Source of the DNA: Thermoplasmata archaeon
Lineage (GTDB): Archaea; Thermoplasmatota; SW-10-69-26; JACQPN01; JAJPHT01
NCBI GenBank assembly: GCA_034667685.1
Contig: JAXDQU010000122.1
Location: 1-63,721 of the forward strand
Direction: 5' to 3'
Length of the DNA: 63,721 nucleotides
The position numbers were made by a program, and so were the translations under genes. Positions 7,331 through 60,626 of the stretch are shown here, in pieces. The notes beneath the pieces are model-generated. The model ran no database searches, was not told the DNA's origin, and worked only from the letters and a program-made list of their open reading frames with translations. The stretch's first letter is position 1. Each line of letters opens with the position of its first letter.

Positions 7331-7525
7331 ATGCGAGCCCTCCTTCTTGCCAGCCTCTGTCTCGCCGTCCTCGTCCTCGCGCCCCTCGCCAGCGCGGAGC
7401 CGTGCGTCGATTCCTTCCGGTGCGCGCCGGGCGGCCCGCCCCTGGCGTACGCCGCGTGCAGCCAGGTCGTCGCGCCGACCCTCAACGACGTCGGCGCCGC
7501 CGTCAACTCGGTGACGTGCAACTAG
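7331..7525 (+). CDS. Small secreted Cys-rich peptide (64 aa)
   Basis: Signal peptide ending LASA; mature part EPCVDSFRC...C...C has 4 Cys; fills the gap to the etfA stop. Confidence 0.6.
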   Translation: MRALLLASLCLAVLVLAPLASAEPCVDSFRCAPGGPPLAYAACSQVVAPTLNDVGAAVNSVTCN

Positions 7526-11069: not shown

Positions 11070-11276
11070 ATGAAGACCACCCTTCTTCTGACGGCGCTCC
11101 TCGCCTTCTCCGTCGCGCTGCTCCTCGTCCCGCCCGCCGGCGCGAGCGAGACGGTCAGCGTCTGCACCGAGGTCCAGCATGACTGCGGCCTCAACCTCGT
11201 CTGCGTCTCCGCGAGCGGGACCGTGACCGCGTTCCGCTGCGTGCGCGATCCGTGCGAGAATCCCGAAGTGTGCTGA
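11070..11276 (+). CDS. Small secreted Cys-rich peptide (68 aa)
   Basis: MKTTLLLTALLAFSVALLLVPPAGA signal; mature part has 6 Cys and ends CVRDPCENPEVC. Confidence 0.7.
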   Translation: MKTTLLLTALLAFSVALLLVPPAGASETVSVCTEVQHDCGLNLVCVSASGTVTAFRCVRDPCENPEVC

Positions 11277-13423: not shown

Positions 13424-15262
13424 TTACGGCAACCGGTCCGCTTGCGTTCCGGGAACGTTCGGAACGCTCGTGGGATTGCTCTTGACCTTCGCCCACGGCG
13501 CCTTCTCCCAGAGCTTGGGCCCGGCGCCCTCGATGGCGACCATGCCCTCGGCGCGGCGCGAGTCGGCGGGCATCGGGCAGGGGTCCTTGCAGCCGTCGCT
13601 GTAGCTGATGTAGACGCGCCCGTCGGGCCCCACGGCGATGTCGATGAAGTCGAGCAGGTTGCGCGCGCTGTCGCATGCGACGCCCGCGGTGCACATCGGC
13701 CCGCGCTGCTGGATGTCCTCGGGCGGCGTGACCATGCCGACCTTGACGCTGCGCGTGCCGTCGTCGGTGGCGTTCTCGACGAACGCGGTGTAGAGGTACC
13801 AGCCGGCCCAGCCGTCCGCGCCGTCGGGGCCTTTCGCGGTGTCGCTCGTCGCGCGATAGACGATCGCGAGCTTGCCCGCGTCGCCCGCGACGGCGTCGAC
13901 GTGGACGAACGACCTCTGCGTGGGCGGGCTGACGGTGACGGGCGCGCTCCACGTCTTGCCGTGGTCCTTGCTGAACGAGTAGCGGATGCCGTCGGCGCGG
14001 TGGTAGGCGAGGTACGCGACGCCGGCCGCGTCCACCGCGAGGCCCGGGTCCACGTCGCTGCACGCCTCCTTCGTCTTGTCGACCTCGACGAAGCTGAACG
14101 TCATGCCGTAGTCGTTCGAGACGCCCACGCCCATGTAGCCGCCGTTGTCGCACATGTAGAGCGGGACGTACACGTCGCCCTTCTCGTCGGCGATGACGGG
14201 CCCGTCGTTCGCGTAGGTGCGCGAGTCGCTCACGCCGACGACCGGCGCCGTGGTGAAGCTGACGCCTCCGTCGAGGGAGCGCGAGACCCACACGCCCTTC
14301 GCGAAGCTGCTGTAGGAGTAGTAGACCGCGGGGAACGGCGCGGGCGTGGGGTTCGGCCCGACGCCGAGCTTCTGGTGGTCGTCGCCCGGCCCACCACACG
14401 CCGCGGGGTTGCTGGTCCACGACGCGCCCGCGTCGGCGCTCCACGCGAGCGCGCTGCAGCCGACGTAGAGCTGGTCCACGTACACGGTGTTGCGCGCGTC
14501 GTCGACGTACATCATCGGATCGAGCGTGACCTGGCTCGTGGTCGCGGGCCCGACGTCCTTCCACGTCGCGCCGTCGTCCGTGCTCTTCAGCGTCGCCGTG
14601 TTGACCTGCGTCCAGACGCTCCCGTCGGGGAGCACGCCCACGTTGTCCTCGCCGCCGCCCAGCTTGGTGTCGGAGACGCGGAACGAGATCGCGGAGTCGG
14701 TCCCGGCCAGCGGGTCGCCGCGCGTGACCTGGCTGGGCAGGTGGAGCGTCACGGCGAGCTTGAACGCCTGGCCCGGCGTCTCGGCCGGCGCGGCGGAGGT
14801 CGGATAGCCCGTGTTGACGCGGACCTTCCAGGAGACGGGCGTCGTCAGGTTGGAAGGCACCGGCACGGTGCACGTCGGGTTCGCCATGAAGGAGAGCGCG
14901 CTGCACTGGACCTTGCCCGCCTCGTCGATCAGCTCGGCGATGACGCTGTTGCCCTGCGAGGCGTCCAGCGTGACGTTGACCTCGACGAAGCCGACGCGGT
15001 CGTCCACCTTGAACGCGTCCTCCAGCAGCGGGTCCTTGACGCCCTGCGTGAGGAGGATCGCCGAGGCGCCGCCCTGCGTCTGCCCCTCGTACTGGAACGT
15101 GCGAGTGCCGTCCGCGTTGTCCAGCGTCGTCTTCGCCGCCGTCGCGGTCAGGTCCTTCAGCGACCCAACGGGCGCGGCGGGAGGCTGCTGCTGCGCGGCG
15201 GGGGCGGCGCCCAGGCAGCCGGCGAGCAACGCGAGGACCAGGAGAAGGGGCAGGGCGCGCAT
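13424..15262 (-). CDS. Lipoprotein with BNR/Asp-box repeats (sialidase-like) and extra N-terminal domain
   Basis: Lipobox LAGC; STDDGATW, SADAGASW, SLDGGVSF, SNDYGMTF, SKDHGKTW; C-terminal LLDFID motif. Confidence 0.9.
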   Translation of the reverse strand: MRALPLLLVLALLAGCLGAAPAAQQQPPAAPVGSLKDLTATAAKTTLDNADGTRTFQYEGQTQGGASAILLTQGVKDPLLEDAFKVDDRVGFVEVNVTLDASQGNSVIAELIDEAGKVQCSALSFMANPTCTVPVPSNLTTPVSWKVRVNTGYPTSAAPAETPGQAFKLAVTLHLPSQVTRGDPLAGTDSAISFRVSDTKLGGGEDNVGVLPDGSVWTQVNTATLKSTDDGATWKDVGPATTSQVTLDPMMYVDDARNTVYVDQLYVGCSALAWSADAGASWTSNPAACGGPGDDHQKLGVGPNPTPAPFPAVYYSYSSFAKGVWVSRSLDGGVSFTTAPVVGVSDSRTYANDGPVIADEKGDVYVPLYMCDNGGYMGVGVSNDYGMTFSFVEVDKTKEACSDVDPGLAVDAAGVAYLAYHRADGIRYSFSKDHGKTWSAPVTVSPPTQRSFVHVDAVAGDAGKLAIVYRATSDTAKGPDGADGWAGWYLYTAFVENATDDGTRSVKVGMVTPPEDIQQRGPMCTAGVACDSARNLLDFIDIAVGPDGRVYISYSDGCKDPCPMPADSRRAEGMVAIEGAGPKLWEKAPWAKVKSNPTSVPNVPGTQADRLP

Positions 15263-15336: not shown

Positions 15337-17298
15337 GTGATCCCGATCGACGCCGGCCTCAAGGCGTTGGCGGGGATCATCTCGCTGAGCTTCGCGTGCA
15401 TCGCCCTGGGCGCCGCGCGCGGGAGCCCGCGCAACGCCTGGCTGGGCGTCTTCCTTCTGCTCATCGCGGGCAACCAGGGGGCCGAGGTGCTGCGCGCCCT
15501 CGCGACGAGCGCGCATGACCAGGACCTTTGGTTCCGCGTCGCGAGCGTGTTCGCCTCGCTGGACCCGGTCGCGCTGGCCCTGTTCGCGAGCCACGCCTTC
15601 CCGCGCAGGACACCCACGTGGGTCCTGGCGTCCGTGCTCGCGGTGGGCGGCGCGGATGCGGTCTACGCGGGCTGGGCCGCGCACTACTCGGCCTCCGTGA
15701 ACCCGACGTCCGTCTTCGACTTCGTGCGCGCCCTGGAGACGCTGCTGGTCTACGGCTGGGTCCTCCTGGGCGCGATGGAGATGCTCCGGACCGAGCCGGG
15801 CGCCCCGACATGGGGCGACCTCGTCCCCGCGATGGGCGTCGCGACGCTGCCCACCGCGGTCAGCCTCGTCATCGCGGGCTTCACGCTGATCTTCCCGTTC
15901 TATCCCGCGGACGTCCGCGACGGCACCCATCCCCTGCCCTACCTGGGGCCGCGCCTCGCGCTGGGCGTCGTCGTGATGGCGCTCCTCGTCGCGTGGCTCT
16001 CCCGCGCCGCGCTCCGCGAGGCTCCAGGGCCGACGCGGCGCCGCCTCGTCGCGGCGACCCTGAGCAGCGCCGCGGTGCTGGTCCTCCTTCAGCTTCCGGG
16101 GCTCCTCTCGCAGGTCGCGATCCCCGCGACGCCGGGCCCGGACGCGATCGTCACGGTGCTGGGCCGCTCGGGCGCCGCGATCCGCTGGCTGATCTTCGGC
16201 GCCTTCGCCTCCGCGATGGTGCTGCGCGACAAGGCGACTCCCCTGGGCCAGGCGGCCCGCCGCCGCGCGGCGCGCGCGTTCCTCGCCATCGCGTTCATCT
16301 CCCTTGCGGTCATGGCGATGTCCGCCGTCCTCCTCGCCACCGGCAGCACGGCAAGCACCCTCGCGATGGGCGCTCTCGTCGTCGCCGCGGCGCTCGCGAT
16401 CTCGCAGGGCTTCCGCACGCTCGTCGACGGCATCGCGACGCGCCTCTACGGCTTCCCCCAGCCGGCCGCGCCGCCGCCCCCGGGCGACGTGCTCCCCGGC
16501 GCGATCGTGGCCGGACGATATCACGTCCTGCGCGAGCTGGGCCGCGGCAACACCGGCCGCGCGTTCCTGGCGCGCGACGAAGGCCTCCGCCGTGAGGTGG
16601 CGCTCAAGGTGCTCGCCGAAGGGGACACGCGCGGGCTGCGCGAGGCGCGCATCGCCGGCTCCGTCTCGCACCCTCACGTCGTCGCGGTGTTCGACATCCT
16701 CGCGGTGGGAAGCGCGACCGTGATCGTCTCGCAGTTCGTGCCGGGGGGAAGCCTGGGGGACCGGCTCGCGGCGCGCGGGCCTTTCGAGCTTCGCGAGGGG
16801 CTCCGGACGCTCGACCAGGTGGCGCAGGGCGTCGCGGCGCTGCACGCCGCTGGCGTCGTCCACCGCGACCTCGCGCCCGGCAACGTGCTGCTGGGTCCGG
16901 ACGGCGTGCCGCGCATCACGGACTTCAGCATCGCGGGGCGCTTCGCGCGCGGCACCGTCGCGCTCGACGCGAGCATCCTGCGCAGGGGCACGCCCGGATT
17001 CGTCGCGCCCGAGCAGGCGCGCGGGGAGACGCCCACGCCACGCGCGGACGTGTACGCGCTGGGCGCCCTCGCGCGGGCCGCGGTGCGGGCGCCGCTCCCG
17101 CCGGCGGTCGAGGCCGTGGTCGTCAAGGCGCTCGACGAGGACCCCGCGCGCCGCCAGCCCGACGCCGCCGCCTGGCTCGCCGAGCTTCGCGCGGCGGTCG
17201 CCTCACTCCCAGAAGACCAGCGCGCTGCGCCCGACGCCCACGATGGAGCCGTGCCGGAGGACGCCGCGCTCCCCGGCTCCGAGCTGCCGCAGGTCTAG
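15337..17298 (+). CDS. Polytopic membrane Hanks-type protein kinase (receptor-like)
   Basis: About 10 hydrophobic segments, then LGRGNTG, VALKVL, HRDLAPGN, DFS, GTPGFVAPE, ADVYALG. Confidence 0.9.
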   Translation: MIPIDAGLKALAGIISLSFACIALGAARGSPRNAWLGVFLLLIAGNQGAEVLRALATSAHDQDLWFRVASVFASLDPVALALFASHAFPRRTPTWVLASVLAVGGADAVYAGWAAHYSASVNPTSVFDFVRALETLLVYGWVLLGAMEMLRTEPGAPTWGDLVPAMGVATLPTAVSLVIAGFTLIFPFYPADVRDGTHPLPYLGPRLALGVVVMALLVAWLSRAALREAPGPTRRRLVAATLSSAAVLVLLQLPGLLSQVAIPATPGPDAIVTVLGRSGAAIRWLIFGAFASAMVLRDKATPLGQAARRRAARAFLAIAFISLAVMAMSAVLLATGSTASTLAMGALVVAAALAISQGFRTLVDGIATRLYGFPQPAAPPPPGDVLPGAIVAGRYHVLRELGRGNTGRAFLARDEGLRREVALKVLAEGDTRGLREARIAGSVSHPHVVAVFDILAVGSATVIVSQFVPGGSLGDRLAARGPFELREGLRTLDQVAQGVAALHAAGVVHRDLAPGNVLLGPDGVPRITDFSIAGRFARGTVALDASILRRGTPGFVAPEQARGETPTPRADVYALGALARAAVRAPLPPAVEAVVVKALDEDPARRQPDAAAWLAELRAAVASLPEDQRAAPDAHDGAVPEDAALPGSELPQV

Positions 17299-17892
17299 CG
17301 AGGTGCCGTTGCGGCTCGTGGGCAGGTCTTCGAGCGTGAAGCCGGAGGCCGTCGCGCGCACCAGGCTGTTGCGGGCGCTGACGAACGGATCGTAGTCGAG
17401 CGCCACGCCGGCCTCGCGGCTCCGCCCCAGCGTCCACGACTGCGCGCGCGTCCGATCGAGCCGGAAGACGCGCCCTTCGTCGGCGCCCTTGATGATGACG
17501 AGCCGCGGGCCCTCGGCAGCGGCGGGCGCCGCGCCGCTCACCTCCATCGTGCCCGCGTGGGGCTCGGCCATGCCGCGCCGGCGCGCCAGCTCGCGCAGCT
17601 CCTCCGAGAGCGCGAAGAGCATCGGATGGTTGAGCAGGTACTCCTTGATCGGCGTCCCGCCGCGCGAGGACTCCTGCGCGAGCACGAGCCCGGCCTCCTC
17701 CAGCCGATCCAGGTGGACGCGGACGGTCTGCCGCGCGACGACGTGGTCCGAGCCGCGGCGCGCGCCCTGGATCTCGATCTCGCTCACCGTGCGCGGCACG
17801 CGAAGCTCGCGCAGCAGCGCCAGGCGCGGCTTGCTGGCGAGCGCGGAGAGCGTCGCGGCCAGCGCTTCGTCGTCCTGCGGTTCCGGGCCCAC
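17203..17892 (-). CDS. ArsR-type winged-helix + FHA domain regulator
   Basis: LSALASKPRLALLREL...TVRVHLDRLEEAGLV (wHTH); WTLGR, PFVS, EDLPTSRNGT (FHA); GTG 17892 has an upstream GAGGT; alternative ATG 17961. Confidence 0.9.
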   Translation of the reverse strand: MGPEPQDDEALAATLSALASKPRLALLRELRVPRTVSEIEIQGARRGSDHVVARQTVRVHLDRLEEAGLVLAQESSRGGTPIKEYLLNHPMLFALSEELRELARRRGMAEPHAGTMEVSGAAPAAAEGPRLVIIKGADEGRVFRLDRTRAQSWTLGRSREAGVALDYDPFVSARNSLVRATASGFTLEDLPTSRNGTSLDLRQLGAGERGVLRHGSIVGVGRSALVFWE

Positions 17893-17934
17893 GGACCTCG
17901 AAGCGGGCGGATGCGCTTGGGCTCTTCGTGTCTT

Positions 17935-17952
17935 CGCAGCAAAGTTTCTGCG
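17935..17952. promoter_or_regulatory. Imperfect palindrome, candidate operator between divergent genes
   Basis: cgcagcaaagtttctgcg. Confidence 0.35.
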
Positions 17953-18003
17953 CGGGTTCATCGCCCCCCGCTGGCTGCTCGGAGCTGCATGTCACACGAC
18001 ACC

Positions 18004-18276
18004 ATGCGCAACGTCTTGATCGTCCTCGCGACCACCCTCGTCCTCGGCGTTCCGCTCGCGGCCGCCGACGACATCGCCAACGCGCACGTGTACGCGCTCG
18101 GCGGCACCGACCTGAGCACCGACCAGTACGGCGCCCTGTGCTACGCCGTCGCGACGTACAGCGTGCACCCCGCCGAGGACGGCTTCTGCGTCGGCAAGGG
18201 CATCATCACGCCCGGCCCGCGCGACTGCGAGATCTACCACATGGGCACGGGCACCTGCGTCAACCCGCTCCCGTAG
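18004..18276 (+). CDS. Small secreted Cys-containing protein (90 aa)
   Basis: MRNVLIVLATTLVLGVPLAAA signal; 4 Cys; ends TCVNPLP; typical codon usage. Confidence 0.75.
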   Translation: MRNVLIVLATTLVLGVPLAAADDIANAHVYALGGTDLSTDQYGALCYAVATYSVHPAEDGFCVGKGIITPGPRDCEIYHMGTGTCVNPLP

Positions 18277-18333
18277 GCGGGCCTATCCGTCGCTGGGGAG
18301 TCGCGTTCCTGCCCCGCAACCTGGCGTGGCGAG

Positions 18334-18402
18334 GCTCCCTTCCCAACACCGAGAATCCCGGAATCCGCGGATGCCTCGGATGCGCGGTGTTGGGAAGGGA
18401 GC
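18334..18402. repeat. Intergenic palindrome family G
   Basis: gctcccttcccaacaccg ... cggtgttgggaagggagc with inner gaatcc/ggatgc units; left arm recurs at 46326-46346. Confidence 0.75.
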
Positions 18403-18405
18403 GGC

Positions 18406-19287: not shown

Positions 19288-19674
19288 TCAGCGGCGCCGC
19301 GCCAGCACGATGGCCGCCGCGACCGCGCCCACGAGCGCCACGGCCTCGAAGCCGGGCGTGGCGTGCGCGCCCTCGTCCGCGGCGGGTCCCGTGGGCGTGG
19401 GCGTCGCGGACTCTGAGTCCGTGAGCCACGACGCGCTGTCGTCCGCGGGCACCGACGTGTCGAGGTCCGAGTCGTTCAGCGAGGGATCGGCGGGCGCCGC
19501 GCTCGCGTTGGCGTCGGTCCCGTTCGTGTCGTCGAGATAGCTCTCGTCGGCCGGGGGCGTCGAGGTGTCCATCTCGGTCTGGTTCACGGTCGGGTCGGCG
19601 GTCTGCGCGTGCGCGAGCGGCAGCGCCAGCAGCGCGCCCGCGAGGAGCGCGTAGGACAGGCGCAGCGCGCTCAC
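19288..19674 (-). CDS. Acidic low-complexity secreted protein with PGF-CTERM signal
   Basis: GTG overlaps the upstream stop; signal peptide; D/S/T-rich body with DTSxPxxDES-like repeat; TPGFEAVALVGAVAAAIVLARRR. Confidence 0.8.
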   Translation of the reverse strand: MSALRLSYALLAGALLALPLAHAQTADPTVNQTEMDTSTPPADESYLDDTNGTDANASAAPADPSLNDSDLDTSVPADDSASWLTDSESATPTPTGPAADEGAHATPGFEAVALVGAVAAAIVLARRR

Positions 19675-20213
19675 CCGCTGTGGTGGTGGCGCTCGTTGAT
19701 CTCGTCGCGGTGGTGGCCGAACTGCGCGAGCGCGGCGGTGCGCAGCGCGACGAGCGTGTCGTGGAGCTTGTCCTGCGCGGCGCGGATGTCGGCGTGGGCC
19801 TTCTCGATGAGGGGCTTCAGGCCGTCGCGGACGCAGTGCTGGTCGCCCTCGGTGCCGTTGCCCTTCGTCGCGTTGCGCTCCGCGCGGCAGGCGTCGATGA
19901 CCTTCGTCTTGTTCTCCAGGAAGGAGGCGCGGATGCCATCGAGCGTGTCGCGGTAGAGCTTCAGGGCGGCGGAGCGGTTCTCCTGGAAGGAGGAGAGGGC
20001 CGCGTGGCGCGCGCCTTCGAGCTCGTCGTGGCGCTGGTGCTCGTCGGTCTCGTTGCGCGTCTCGTTGGTCTCGTTGCCGTGCGGGCCGGGGTGGTCCGCC
20101 GCGCTCTCGTTCGCGTGCTCGGAGCCGCCCTGCGCGCTGGCGAAGGCGGCCGTGCCGGCGGTGGCGACGAGGAGGAGGCCCAGGAGGGCCAGGAGGGGGG
20201 TCGGGGTGCGCAT
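19671..20213 (-). CDS. Secreted helical protein with N-glycosylation sequons
   Basis: Signal peptide; NET x3, NES, NRS, NKT, NAT, NGT; one Cys pair; CTTATA box at about 20250-20256. Confidence 0.75.
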   Translation of the reverse strand: MRTPTPLLALLGLLLVATAGTAAFASAQGGSEHANESAADHPGPHGNETNETRNETDEHQRHDELEGARHAALSSFQENRSAALKLYRDTLDGIRASFLENKTKVIDACRAERNATKGNGTEGDQHCVRDGLKPLIEKAHADIRAAQDKLHDTLVALRTAALAQFGHHRDEINERHHHSG

Positions 20214-20283
20214 GGGTTGTTCCTCGACGCCGCACTCCTGTGCCGGGACGTATAAGGGACTTGGGGCGGACTTCGAAGGTTGA

Positions 20284-20727
20284 TCAGGACGCGTTCAAGA
20301 CCCCTTCGGCCTGGGCCTGCGCGTAGGCCGCCGCCGAGAGATCCGGCTGGGGCGGGGCCGGCAGGGAGGGAATCTCGGCGTGGACCTCGGCCTTGGCTTC
20401 GCTGGCCGCGCCGAAGAGGCCGCGGATCCAGGCGCCGAAGCTGGCCATCTGGTGGCCGAAGCTCGCGGCGAGGCCGTGCCCGGCCTCCACCGTCGCGTCC
20501 GCCTTCGCGTGCGCGTCCTGCGCGGTGGCTTCGGCGCTCGCCTTCGTCGCGTCGACGCGCGCCTGGGCGTCGGCCAGCGTGCTCTCCGCGAGCTTCTGCG
20601 CGCCGGAGGCATCGGCCGAGGCGTGCGCGTCGGCCTGGACGTCCACGAGCGGGAGCGCGGCGGCGGCGCCGGAGAGGAGCAGGAGGGTCACGAGGCAGGC
20701 GGTGGGGATCAGGGCGGGGGTTCGCAT
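20284..20727 (-). CDS. Secreted Ala-rich protein
   Basis: Signal peptide (MRTP start like the next gene); Ala-rich helical body. Confidence 0.7.
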   Translation of the reverse strand: MRTPALIPTACLVTLLLLSGAAAALPLVDVQADAHASADASGAQKLAESTLADAQARVDATKASAEATAQDAHAKADATVEAGHGLAASFGHQMASFGAWIRGLFGAASEAKAEVHAEIPSLPAPPQPDLSAAAYAQAQAEGVLNAS

Positions 20728-37355: not shown

Positions 37356-37658
37356 GTGCGAGCCCTCCTGGCCTCCTTCCTCCTGTTGGCTGGCGTCACG
37401 TGCGCCGCCTCCGTCGCCCTCGCCGACGCGCCGAACGTCCGGGCCTGCGTCGTGCTGGGCAACCTCTACCAGGACGTCCACTACGTCGGCGACTCGTACC
37501 ATCCCTTCCCCGACCCGCCCTGCATCGTCCAGGGCGTCTGCTGCCCGCCGGACTACTGCACGCCCCCCGTTCCCTTCCCGCTGCCGCAGCCGAGCCCGCC
37601 CATCTCCGTGTGGTCCTTCGTCTCGTCGTCGAACGACCCCGGGCTCCCGCTTCCGTAA
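37356..37658 (+). CDS. Small secreted Cys/Pro-rich protein (100 aa)
   Basis: CTTAT box 26-30 nt upstream; signal peptide; PPCIVQGVCCPPDYCTPP; ends PLP. Confidence 0.65.
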   Translation: MRALLASFLLLAGVTCAASVALADAPNVRACVVLGNLYQDVHYVGDSYHPFPDPPCIVQGVCCPPDYCTPPVPFPLPQPSPPISVWSFVSSSNDPGLPLP

Positions 37659-46259: not shown

Positions 46260-46355
46260 GTCCAGGTCCCTCTCTTCGAACCGGCTGATGGCGGACCCCT
46301 TGATGGCGTTTTCTCCTGCCGGCGCGCTCCTTCCCAACACCGAGAAGGGACGCCA

Positions 46356-58971: not shown

Positions 58972-60180
58972 TCAGCGCGCCGTGGAAAGGGCGCCGGCGT
59001 ACGCCTCCGCATCCCGGCCGGCGCGTCGCGCGTCCTTGAGCTGGATCATGAAGCGGCAGCTCGGATCGCCCCGCGACTCGCACGTGACCTCCGCGCCGGG
59101 CGCGGGCAGGCCCCCGTTCACGCGGCTCACGACGCCGCTGAGGAACCCGAGCGCGAGGTGGCACGTCGTGGAGCGCGCGCCCGGCGACCGCTCGAAGAGG
59201 TTCTCCCCGTCGAAGACGTAGCGGCGCCCCTGCTCCTCCTCGAGGTGGAGCGTGCCCAGCCCCATCTCCTCATAGGCGCGGCAGAATGCGTCGACGTCGT
59301 TCGCCTCGCCCTCCATCGCCAGCTCCTGGCCCAGCCGGAGCAGCACGCTCGCCTGGGCGCCCGTCATCTCGAAGACGCTCAGCAGGATCTTCTTCACGAG
59401 CGGACGCGCGACGCGCGAGGAGACGAGGGCCGCCTCGGCCCGCTTGCGCTCGGTGACGTCGTGGGCGACGGCATAGACGACGCCATGCGCCTGCGAGCGG
59501 ACCGCCACGCAGAGCAGCCAGCGCGTCGAGCCGTCGGCGCACGCGAACCGGCACTCGACGGGCTCCGCGGCCTCGCCCAAGGCCTGCATCCGCATCGTCG
59601 CCTCCAGGCGCAGGCGGTCCTCCGGATGGACGAGGTCGAGGACGGGCCGCGCGAGGAGCTGCTGCGTCGAGTAGCCCAGCGTGCGCTCCCACGCCGGGTT
59701 GAGGAGCTTGAAGCGGCCATCCTCCCCGATGATCGCGAGCATGTCGAGCGAGAGCTGGAAGAAGCCGTCGCGCTCCTCCTCGGCGCGCGTCCGCGTGAGC
59801 CGCTCTCGCCGCTCCTGGATCGCGCGATCCACCGCGCCCGCGAGCAGGCCGAGGCGGTCCTTCGGCACGTAGCCCACCGCGCCCCGCTGCATCGCGGCGA
59901 CCACCGCCTCCTCGCCGATCTGCCCCGAGACGATGATGACCGGGACGTCGGCGCCCGCCCTGCGCAGGGTCTCGATCACGGCGTGGGAGCTCAGCCGCGG
60001 AAGGGAGTGGTCGACCAGCGCGACGTCCCAGCGCGCGTCGCGGAGCGCGGCCAGAAGCCCCGGCTCGTCCTCGACGCGGGTCCACGCCACCTCGTGGCCG
60101 GCGCGCCGGAGCGCGAGCGCCGCAAGCTCCGCGTCGTCGCGCGAGTCCTCGACGATCAGGACGTTCAGCGCGGGGCCCAC
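58972..60180 (-). CDS. Response regulator with REC-PAS-V4R architecture
   Basis: LIVEDS..D, VD..LP, SG, K; PAS NPAWERTLGY/VHPED/HDVTERK; V4R CHLALGFLSG...EVTC...GDPSCRF. Confidence 0.88.
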   Translation of the reverse strand: MGPALNVLIVEDSRDDAELAALALRRAGHEVAWTRVEDEPGLLAALRDARWDVALVDHSLPRLSSHAVIETLRRAGADVPVIIVSGQIGEEAVVAAMQRGAVGYVPKDRLGLLAGAVDRAIQERRERLTRTRAEEERDGFFQLSLDMLAIIGEDGRFKLLNPAWERTLGYSTQQLLARPVLDLVHPEDRLRLEATMRMQALGEAAEPVECRFACADGSTRWLLCVAVRSQAHGVVYAVAHDVTERKRAEAALVSSRVARPLVKKILLSVFEMTGAQASVLLRLGQELAMEGEANDVDAFCRAYEEMGLGTLHLEEEQGRRYVFDGENLFERSPGARSTTCHLALGFLSGVVSRVNGGLPAPGAEVTCESRGDPSCRFMIQLKDARRAGRDAEAYAGALSTAR

Positions 60181-60182
60181 GC

Positions 60183-60626
60183 TCAGACGCTCCGGTGGAG
60201 GGCTGGCGGCGGGCTCTCGTTGAGGACGAGCCAGTAGAGGCCAAGCTGCTTGACGGCCTCCATGAACTGCGCGAAGTCCACCGGCTTCTGGATGTAGCTG
60301 TTCGCGCCGAGGCTGTAGCTGCGCACGACATCGGCCTCCTCCCGCGAGGAGGTCAGGACCACGACGGGCAAGAGCCGGGTCGAGGGCGCGCCGCGGATCC
60401 TCCGAAGCACGTCGAGCCCGTCGACCTTGGGCAGCTTGAGATCGAGGAGGACGAGCGAGGGGAGCGGCGCCTCGTCGCCCCGGCCGAAGAGGTAATCGAC
60501 GGCCTTGGCGCCGTCCTGCATGACGACGATCTCGTTCGCGATGTGGTTCCTCTTGAAAGCTCGGAGGGTCAACTCGACGTCGTCGGGGTTGTCCTCCACG
60601 AGCAGGACGATGCTGGGCTCATTCAT
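60183..60626 (-). CDS. Single-domain response regulator (Rcp1-like)
   Basis: LLVEDNPDD, LLDLKLPKVDG, LTSS, GANSYIQKPV, LGLYWL. Confidence 0.93.
   Translation of the reverse strand: MNEPSIVLLVEDNPDDVELTLRAFKRNHIANEIVVMQDGAKAVDYLFGRGDEAPLPSLVLLDLKLPKVDGLDVLRRIRGAPSTRLLPVVVLTSSREEADVVRSYSLGANSYIQKPVDFAQFMEAVKQLGLYWLVLNESPPPALHRSV

Follow-up and report, generated by a model that had tools for sequence, protein, structure and literature searches.

The 63,721-nucleotide window analyzed here, contig C122 of a 3.48-Mb, 124-contig genome (G000) of a Thermoplasmata archaeon, carries two convergent genes: one encodes a polytopic membrane kinase of the Hanks type and the other a transcription regulator in which a winged helix-turn-helix (wHTH) domain is joined to an FHA domain. 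We consider it likely that the two proteins form a cognate signalling pair, one of approximately eleven in the genome, with a logic similar to that of two-component systems in which Ser/Thr phosphorylation is read by an FHA domain. An initial annotation of this DNA had placed the kinase, the regulator and a secreted peptide in a circuit encoded by a single locus. The step from the membrane kinase to the adjacent FHA regulator is strongly supported by the pairing of the genes, the conservation of this pairing and the co-divergence of the partners. By contrast, the peptide does not hold up as a conserved ligand or component.

Domain organization of the regulator

The regulator had been described as an ArsR-type wHTH fused to an FHA domain with GR, S and SxNGT motifs. 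Indeed, this description agrees with the Pfam profiles, the fold matches and the pattern of conserved residues. In the longest open reading frame (ORF; 17203–17961, minus strand), HTH_20 matched residues 41–93 (E = 6.6e-6, 26.5 bits against a cut-off of 27) and FHA matched residues 176–244 (E = 1.7e-6, 28.8 bits against a cut-off of 20.7). The protein most likely starts at the GTG at 17892 and has 229 residues because the statistics of the segment 17893–17961 are those of non-coding DNA (GC content at third codon positions, GC3, of 0.61; coding score −1.35) and because the paralogues begin at the equivalent place. Unless noted otherwise, residues are numbered from this GTG.

The AlphaFold2 model of the regulator had a pLDDT of 92.7 and a pTM of 0.79. 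Its wHTH part consists of helices, a two-strand wing and a C-terminal helix. A profile of the regulator family matched solved ArsR-family proteins over positions 4–100, including 2oqg (E = 5.3e-9), 2p4w, SmtB, HlyU and NolR, and PF12840 is present in several relatives. Each of the listed solved chains matched the profile in one stretch only, confined to the FHA half or to the wHTH half. The NCBIfam HTH_metalloreg model scored 18.6 against a cut-off of 55. The regulator contains no Cys and is therefore devoid of ArsR-type metal sites, leaving the FHA domain as the input. Judging from its sequence, the wHTH appears to work as a DNA-binding scaffold and not as a metal sensor.

In Foldseek searches, the structures nearest to the FHA domain were those of GarA and OdhI, with root-mean-square deviations (rmsd) of 1.0–1.1 Å over approximately 101 residues, 28–30% identity and E values of approximately 5e-9. 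The TM score with respect to the GarA FHA domain, normalized to the target, was 0.84–0.95, and the domain has the 11-strand β-sandwich fold. The matches also included the PknB-GarA complex, phosphorylated OdhI, the FHA domain of DgcB with its phosphorylated tail, the more distant ArnA (5a8i, E = 4.5e-7), and EmbR, whose structures 2fez and 2ff4 were found among both the fold and the profile matches.

Three residues are invariant in the 54 aligned regulators (R23, H60 and G156) and five are conserved in at least 90% of them (R157, S172, N195, T197 and N200). G156, R157, S172 and N195 occupy the Gly-Arg, Ser and Asn positions through which FHA domains contact phospho-Thr. The His of the FHA S-x-x-H motif is not kept: the window sequence is S-A-R-N, and the family consensus is also without the His. 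This residue is structural and not strictly invariant among FHA domains. Based on the conservation of the contact residues, the domain is predicted to bind phospho-Thr.

The linker between the two domains (residues 104–129) is unconserved except for one column, that of Thr115, which is occupied by Thr in 46 of the 54 regulators and never by Ser. A Thr occurs within reference positions 111–119 in 51 of the 54, and the three regulators that lack one (L039, L042 and L055) come from loci where no kinase is close by. FHA domains recognize phospho-Thr but not phospho-Ser. Given this preference, a Thr-only column beside an FHA domain is a plausible phospho-acceptor, and Thr115 is the likely phospho-switch of the regulator, as predicted from the alignment.

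Catalytic and membrane domains of the kinase

The initial annotation had assigned the kinase approximately ten transmembrane (TM) segments and a C-terminal Hanks domain, in good agreement with what was found. Hydropathy analysis yielded nine TM segments in the 653-residue protein, the AlphaFold2 model of residues 1–385 contained 11 long helices (pLDDT 87.1, pTM 0.87), and Pfam Pkinase matched the C-terminal part at residues 395–580 (E = 4.5e-32, 111.9 bits against a cut-off of 31.7). The catalytic domain keeps the β3 Lys (VALK), the αC Glu (REAR), the HRD Asp, the catalytic-loop Asn (GN), the DFG Asp and the APE motif. The β3 Lys, catalytic Asp, catalytic-loop Asn and DFG Asp are kept in all 31 of the aligned multi-TM kinases. 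Among these, a Thr located 8–10 residues past the DFG motif is nearly universal, and the window copy has it. A defence-system assignment of the kinase was considered and dropped: the NCBIfam models MADS6 (105.6 against a cut-off of 460) and BREX PglW (76.3 against 990) scored far under their cut-offs, reflecting similarity of the kinase domain.

The topology of the membrane domain is inferred, from the positive-inside rule applied to the sequence and the list of helices, to be N-out/C-in, with extracellular loops of only about 5–16 residues. No Pfam family was detected in any of the ten paralogous membrane domains at E values of up to 5, save for one YtpI match at E = 0.11. A word-based search of 5.8e9 protein clusters, limited in its length range, yielded 13 matches to the membrane domain, including itself and a paralogue, and all of these were fused to Pkinase. 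Foldseek comparison of the model with the PDB gave nothing at E ≤ 0.001, the best match having an E value of 7e-3. VIA-align superposed 7TM/GPCR-like bundles on residues 1–315 (Z of 12–13.5, rmsd of approximately 4 Å, 205–236 aligned residues), a level that is common for helical bundles, and a feature search of a protein atlas returned HisKA_7TM clusters with a score of 0.88, to be taken as no more than a lead. The conserved polar residues of the domain are, in the window protein, Asn46, Arg53, Arg67 and Asp75-Pro76. We call the region a putative lineage-specific 11-helix sensor domain. It possibly has a 7TM-like core.

Paralogous pairs in the genome

When the genome was searched in six frames with the regulator, 11 full-length paralogues were recovered along with one weak partial match over query residues 43–163, approximately the wHTH and linker region. 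The kinase domain, used as a tblastn query, produced matches on 12 contigs. The matches at the ends of C88 and C109 appear to be one gene split by a contig break, bringing the number of kinases to 11. Consistent with this number, 11 of the 12 Pfam Pkinase matches in the genome were strong (108–151 bits) and corresponded to the multi-TM kinases; the twelfth was weak (34 bits). The ten full-length kinases have 8–11 hydropathy-predicted TM segments ahead of the kinase domain, and the C88 part of the eleventh has nine.

Ten of the 11 regulator genes adjoin a kinase gene and ten of the 11 kinase genes adjoin a regulator gene; the C17 regulator and the C85 kinase are the exceptions. Six of the pairs are convergent, three are on the same strand with the regulator upstream, and one has the kinase upstream. 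All eight Pfam FHA matches in the genome lie within wHTH-FHA genes, and this search detected no FHA domain outside of them. The FHA domain of the window regulator and two others fell under the first threshold of the genome-wide search and were placed in the family by other searches. In the kinase and the regulator of the window, Pfam detected Pkinase, HTH_20 and FHA only; HisKA/HATPase and receiver domains are absent from both.

Conservation and co-divergence of the pairs in relatives

A search with the single regulator protein (E ≤ 1e-5) detected matches in all 20 genomes of the same class, at 1–15 per genome, and in none of 20 genomes from other classes of the phylum. Most of the same-class genomes sampled contained 5–15 copies. 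Using a profile of 54 sequences (E ≤ 1e-10), the family was found in 28 of 301 genomes of the phylum: G000, all 20 of the same class and seven of 280 others, four of the seven belonging to one family.

Linkage was evaluated using every match from seven relatives, which amounted to 40 loci; L059 contained no regulator match at 1e-5 and was left out, leaving 39. In 26 of these loci, a kinase-domain ORF overlaps the regulator ORF or is separated from it by at most 204 bp, and in two more it is approximately 1.0–1.3 kb away. Thirteen of the 26 adjacent pairs are convergent, eight are regulator-then-kinase, four are kinase-then-regulator and one is divergent. Locus L063 was counted as convergent based on its tblastn coordinates as its ORF call was over-extended. 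Most of the partner kinases have 6–11 predicted TM segments; five of the 26 (L034, L049, L050, L060 and L061) have only one or two. Of 21 full-length regulator genes in five genomes from outside the class, 18 are no more than 1.7 kb from a kinase domain. The exceptions are L101, whose kinase is at 2.3 kb, and L106 and L111, which have none. Finally, at four loci from named metagenome-assembled genomes (MAGs), a kinase domain is within 1.7 kb of two of five regulator genes and at 2.1–2.2 kb from the other three. The co-location of HTH-FHA genes with TM kinases in related archaea, which the initial annotation had put forward as a check, is thus conserved.

The sequences of the partners diverge together. 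For 35 adjacent pairs, the distances between kinase domains and those between partner regulators were correlated with a Mantel r of 0.54, a value reached in none of 5000 permutations. For the nine complete pairs of the genome itself, r was 0.84, a value that a single permutation out of 5000 reached. In 15 of the 35 cases, the closest kinase and the closest regulator came from the same pair. Such co-divergence is as predicted from the duplication and divergence of whole cassettes and is by itself no proof of physical specificity.

Intergenic region and promoter words

An imperfect palindrome had been noted between the regulator gene and the divergent peptide gene. The palindrome, CGCAGCAAAGTTTCTGCG, is present at 17935–17952 and 7 of its 9 positions pair. 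However, 393 of 2000 shuffles of the 111-bp region paired at least as well, which places it within chance, and we give it no weight. Upstream of 4 of the 11 regulator genes there are perfect palindromes whose arms measure at least 7 nt; by our estimate, approximately 0.26 such palindromes are expected per sequence, and they were not used as evidence.

The word AAGTT/AACTT is found upstream of five of the 11 regulator genes of the genome and of none of the 39 in relatives. The 7-mer AAAGTTT/AAACTTT occurs six times in the 3.48 Mb, always in intergenic DNA and mostly within GAAA(C/G)TTTC. The sites are at 17941–17947 in the window and at C95 6064, C74 4030, C101 2596, C111 1385 and C118 22287. 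Two of the six, those on C122 and C95, are just upstream of wHTH-FHA genes. This word could be a rare promoter or operator element. It differs from GCTTAT, CTTATC and CTTATG, which were the most enriched hexamers 10–90 nt upstream of 1370 gene starts (20–25 fold). The AT content upstream of gene starts in this genome peaks at −40 to −20, and the three hexamers are probably the TATA/BRE-like promoter word of the lineage.

The secreted Cys protein and other neighbours of the pairs

The 90-residue ORF with a signal peptide and four Cys that had been reported as divergent from the regulator gene is a real gene by its coding statistics. Its GC3 is 0.99 and its coding score is +1.09 as compared to 0.02 or less in the other five frames; an earlier ATG at 17989 is possible. 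The encoded protein has a hydrophobic, signal-peptide-like N-terminus and matched no Pfam or NCBIfam family.

The further proposal that the secreted Cys peptide takes part in the circuit finds no support as a conserved trait of the module. The protein has no paralogue in the genome, and no homologue was found in any of the 20 same-class genomes (E ≤ 0.01). In a permissive scan, none of the 39 related loci contained a small secreted Cys ORF within 600 bp of the module, and three had one farther off. A stricter scan detected none within 300 bp in the 34 of these loci with a regulator called, and one farther off.

Within the genome itself, small secreted Cys proteins are common. By a hydropathy rule, 106 of 3479 called genes (approximately 3%) encode proteins of up to 130 residues with a signal-peptide-like N-terminus and at least four Cys (4–13). 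Thirty-three of the 106 form one similarity cluster, which does not contain the 90-residue protein. The genes are often in tandem arrays, as on C10 (14228–15133), C63 (14177–15186), C89 (8745–10007) and C106 (22277–23118). The members in the window are at 7331–7525, 11070–11276, 17989–18276 and 37356–37658; for the one at 11070, a genome of the same genus contains a homologue with 58% identity, and two others gave weak matches.

Such ORFs make up 4 of the 24 immediate neighbours of the modules in the genome (on C122, C31, C95 and C109; binomial P = 0.0056, or 0.028 without the discovery case). Each has a different placement: the C122 ORF is divergent from the regulator gene, the C31 ORF directly precedes the kinase gene on the same strand, the C95 ORF converges with the kinase gene, and the C109 ORF is 7 bp upstream of the regulator gene. 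The four share no similarity beyond the signal peptide. More generally, 10 of the 24 neighbours have a signal-peptide-like N-terminus as compared to 573 of 3479 genes genome-wide (P = 0.003), and genes of this type lie on either side of the C122, C12 and C25 modules. In relatives, secreted neighbours are not enriched (11 of 94 versus 32 of 217 other genes of the same loci), although gene calls there used the codon table of G000 and may miss small genes, so this negative is less strong than it appears. A complex prediction with the mature peptide (residues 22–90) and the kinase membrane domain returned a score of 0.02 and a mark of 0.32, which speak neither for nor against binding. The 90-residue protein is best read as a neighbour of the pair and at most as a genome-specific target of the regulator, not as a conserved ligand.

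Gene coordinates and genomic context

The coordinates of the module and its features are summarized in Table 1. The kinase and regulator genes had been reported to overlap tail to tail by 96 bp, and both stop codons confirm this. Within the overlap, the kinase frame codes poorly, scoring 0.06 as compared to 0.46 for the FHA frame, and the C-terminal tail of the kinase is therefore probably a run-on to the next stop codon. Overlapping or near-abutting convergent 3′ ends recur among the paralogues and relatives.

Table 1. Features of the kinase/wHTH-FHA locus in the window.
Feature	Positions	Strand	Basis
Polytopic-membrane Hanks-type Ser/Thr kinase, 653 aa	15337–17298	+	Pfam Pkinase; one of 11 strong genomic Pkinase matches
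Putative N-terminal 11-helix membrane sensor domain, aa 1–385	15337–16491	+	AlphaFold2 model
Kinase catalytic domain	16519–17076	+	Alignment of 31 multi-TM kinases
96-bp convergent overlap of both 3′ ends	17203–17298		Stop codons
wHTH-FHA transcription regulator, 229 aa, most likely from GTG 17892	17203–17892	−	Pfam FHA and HTH_20, AlphaFold2, coding statistics, paralogues
ArsR/SmtB-type wHTH, aa 1–103, no Cys	17584–17892	−	Profile match to solved ArsR-family regulators; model
Thr115 codon in wHTH-FHA linker, candidate phospho-acceptor	17548–17550	−	Thr in 46 of 54 aligned members
FHA domain, aa 130–229	17206–17505	−	Foldseek match to GarA/OdhI; conserved contact residues
Divergent intergenic region, 111 bp, 65% GC, with imperfect palindrome 17935–17952 around AAAGTTT	17893–18003		Sequence statistics
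Secreted 4-Cys protein, 90 aa	18004–18276	+	Coding score +1.09, GC3 0.99

Several other features flank the module. On the kinase side, a gene at 13424–15262 (minus strand), divergent from the kinase gene with 74 bp between them, encodes a 612-residue protein whose N-terminus resembles a lipobox (LLAGC) and which contains 11 Cys as well as BNR/Asp-box repeats (BNR_2, E = 3.5e-8). Beyond the peptide gene, an intergenic palindromic repeat of approximately 75 nt at 18331–18405 is situated between the stops of the peptide ORF and of an enoyl-CoA hydratase gene. Its 17-nt arms are perfect (CTCCCTTCCCAACACCG ... CGGTGTTGGGAAGGGAG), and besides a partial copy near 46329 there are about 20 further loci in the genome. 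The 13-nt core of the arm occurs in 25 copies in the genome, all outside called genes; contig depth is high at the repeat in a second soil metagenome. The repeat has the appearance of a REP/MITE-like element or of a shared terminator. Three consecutive small genes at 19288–20727 (minus strand) encode proteins of 128, 180 and 147 residues, all with signal-peptide-like N-termini. Their mature parts are of low complexity, being Asn/Thr/Asp-rich or Ala-rich, and match no Pfam family above cut-off. Near the end of the window, at 59857–60608 (minus strand), two receiver-domain matches lie side by side and belong to the 26 of the genome.

Along C122, the G+C content is 67–76% per 2-kb window. The genome contains a full-length match to the archaeal small-subunit rRNA model (1498 bits) and encodes ribosomal protein S17e, a protein that was matched only in the four archaea among the control genomes. 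Relatives of the regulator gene occur in named MAGs, which bear the labels Thermoplasmatota, Thermoplasmata or 'Methanobacteriota' and, in two cases, Halobacteriales. The contigs that carry the locus are from soil metagenomes. The locus was located in two soil-metagenome contig sets, as an identical copy in one and as fragments only in the other, and there is thus no strain variation by which to judge selection on the 90-residue peptide.

Discussion

The two proteins suggest a route from the membrane to the promoter. The 11-helix domain would sense a membrane-associated or small extracellular cue, upon which the cytoplasmic Hanks domain would autophosphorylate, probably on the Thr 8–10 residues after the DFG motif. 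The FHA domain of the regulator could then dock on the phosphorylated kinase, which would phosphorylate Thr115 of the linker. Binding of phospho-Thr by the FHA domain, either in cis, as in GarA and OdhI, or in trans by a second subunit, would alter DNA binding by the ArsR-type wHTH dimer and so change transcription from the promoter of the regulator itself or from neighbouring promoters. The domain make-up, the pairing with its conservation, the co-divergence of the partners and the conserved Thr are observed, whereas the signal, the sites of phosphorylation and the sense in which DNA binding would change are inferred.

Several observations weigh against a cognate signalling pair. No operator shared by the regions upstream of the 11 regulator genes was found, palindromes there being about as frequent as expected by chance, and the genome yielded no PP2C_2 or SpoIIE phosphatase, the only two phosphatase families searched. 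The 26 receiver domains that exceed the cut-off in this genome indicate that the kinase/FHA system exists alongside two-component systems and is not a substitute for them. The co-divergence may in part be due to the common descent of whole cassettes, with no need of functional coupling. Thirteen of the 39 regulator genes in the seven relatives, or one third, have no adjacent kinase and the orientation of the pairs is not fixed, as might be seen if the two families were merely co-inherited in variable regions of the genome and were neighbours without function. We disfavour this explanation and consider it very improbable: approximately 1% adjacency per gene is expected, as estimated from some 11 kinases among some 3500 genes, as compared to the 10 of 11, 26 of 39 and 18 of 21 seen; the partner sequences co-diverge; and no FHA domain was detected elsewhere in the genome. 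Finally, two catalytic motifs of the window kinase deviate from the family consensus: HrD.kp.N is replaced by HRDLAPGN, with Ala for the Lys, and DfG by DFS, with Ser for the Gly. This Lys and this Gly are typical of Ser/Thr kinases. The kinase is a Hanks family member by profile, and these deviations suggest that it may be a weak or altered enzyme. The same Lys is missing from its nearest sub-clade, in which C12 has Thr, L024 has Asn and L041 has Thr. It could accordingly be degenerate, acting as a pseudokinase or scaffold or depending on a paralogous kinase, with the regulator controlled by binding or sequestration at the membrane and not through phosphorylation by this kinase. This is unlikely, as the β3 Lys, αC Glu, catalytic Asp, Asn, DFG Asp, APE motif and activation-loop Thr are all kept, and the regulator keeps Thr115 and the FHA contact residues. 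Moreover, the loss of the Lys in several otherwise conserved related copies suggests a tolerated variant and not decay.

The secreted neighbours allow readings that reach beyond the pair. They may be its outputs, with the regulators controlling adjacent secreted, often Cys-rich genes, including the 90-residue ORF and the BNR-repeat lipoprotein. The excess of signal-peptide-like N-termini among the 24 neighbours, the presence of such genes on both flanks of three modules and a divergent arrangement in which the promoter region is shared with the regulator gene are consistent with this possibility. We nonetheless regard it as doubtful: the enrichment was not replicated in relatives, the neighbours are mutually unrelated and no shared operator was found. 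A full three-part circuit, in which the 4-Cys peptide is the ligand of the kinase and the regulator controls the peptide promoter in an autocrine or quorum-sensing loop, is improbable. The peptide gene is real by its codon statistics and divergent from the regulator across only 111 bp, small secreted Cys ORFs are over-represented beside the modules with or without the discovery case, and the C31 and C109 ORFs are placed directly upstream of a module gene. However, the peptide is without paralogue or homologue in the 20 relatives, none of the 39 related loci carries a comparable ORF at 600 bp or less, secreted neighbours show no excess in relatives, the four peptides of the genome are non-homologous and differ in position and orientation, and the extracellular loops of the kinase, as read on the model, are short. 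We likewise give little credence to the broader idea that the cassettes are receptor-kinase circuits for which the more than 100 small secreted Cys-rich proteins supply ligands, possibly auto-induced, to cognate 11-TM kinases. If true, such circuits would use Ser/Thr-FHA chemistry to do in archaea what Cys-rich peptides and receptor kinases do in plants, or peptide quorum sensing does in bacteria. The enrichment of neighbours in this one genome leaves a genome-specific link of the peptide possible, as a target and, less so, as a ligand.

The closest systems in logic to the proposed kinase-regulator pair, by analogy, appear to be PknH-EmbR, ArnA/ArnB with ArnC/ArnD, and the GarA/OdhI switch. 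In mycobacteria, the gene for the membrane Hanks kinase PknH adjoins that for EmbR, whose FHA domain reads the phospho-Thr of the kinase. The archaeal regulator similarly joins DNA-binding and FHA domains and is encoded beside a membrane Hanks kinase. The systems differ in that EmbR has a SARP-type wHTH and a BTAD domain whereas the wHTH of the archaeal regulator is of the ArsR type; PknH crosses the membrane once and carries an extracellular sensor domain whereas the archaeal kinase has 11 membrane helices and short loops; and there is one bacterial pair as compared to some 11 paralogous pairs per archaeal genome. GarA and OdhI of Actinobacteria have the nearest FHA fold, and they share with the archaeal regulator a conserved Thr in a flexible segment N-terminal to the FHA domain that, when phosphorylated, the domain could bind. 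Unlike the archaeal regulator, they are enzyme regulators without a DNA-binding domain, and their ETTS motif does not align with Thr115.

The resemblance to two-component systems is one of logic only: here there is no HisKA/HATPase or receiver domain, Ser/Thr phosphorylation would be read by an FHA domain, and the commonest gene order is convergent and not an operon. FHA domains also serve as input modules in bacteria. In the FHA-bearing enhancer-binding proteins of Myxococcus, the FHA domain is the input module of a sigma-54 AAA+ activator. In Bdellovibrio DgcB (FHA-GGDEF), it takes the place of a receiver and binds a phosphorylated tail, according to the titles of PDB entries 6hc1 and 6hbz. 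In contrast to the archaeal pairs, the outputs of these proteins are GGDEF or a sigma-54 AAA+ activator, and they are bacterial with no fixed kinase neighbour family.

Among archaea, Ser/Thr phospho-signalling is known mainly from the archaellum network of Sulfolobus (PMC5007285). There, ArnA/ArnB with ArnC/ArnD, and ST0829 with ST1565, involve an archaeal FHA protein that is phosphorylated by Hanks kinases and linked to promoter control (PMC5007285, PMC13286277), as is envisaged here. ArnA, however, has a zinc finger in place of a wHTH and works jointly with the vWA protein ArnB, the kinases are not polytopic membrane receptors encoded as one-to-one neighbours, and no paralogous expansion is known. 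The archaeal pairs are thus set apart from known systems by the ArsR-type DNA-binding domain, the 11-helix putative sensor, the one-to-one genomic pairing and the expansion in copy number. Full-text literature searches returned no description of a wHTH-FHA regulator paired with membrane kinases in archaea; supplements and subscription journals were outside their coverage, and prior mention is possible.

Transmembrane signalling to transcription in archaea is poorly understood. A whole soil lineage resembling Thermoplasmatota appears to have combined a Hanks kinase with an ArsR-type DNA binder gated by an FHA domain into a sensor-regulator system that is modular, pairs one to one and duplicates. 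If true, the pairs would represent a third general design of prokaryotic transmembrane signalling to transcription, beside one- and two-component systems. They would also provide a natural set of co-evolving kinase-FHA pairs for studies of specificity and would point to a new 11-helix membrane sensor domain.

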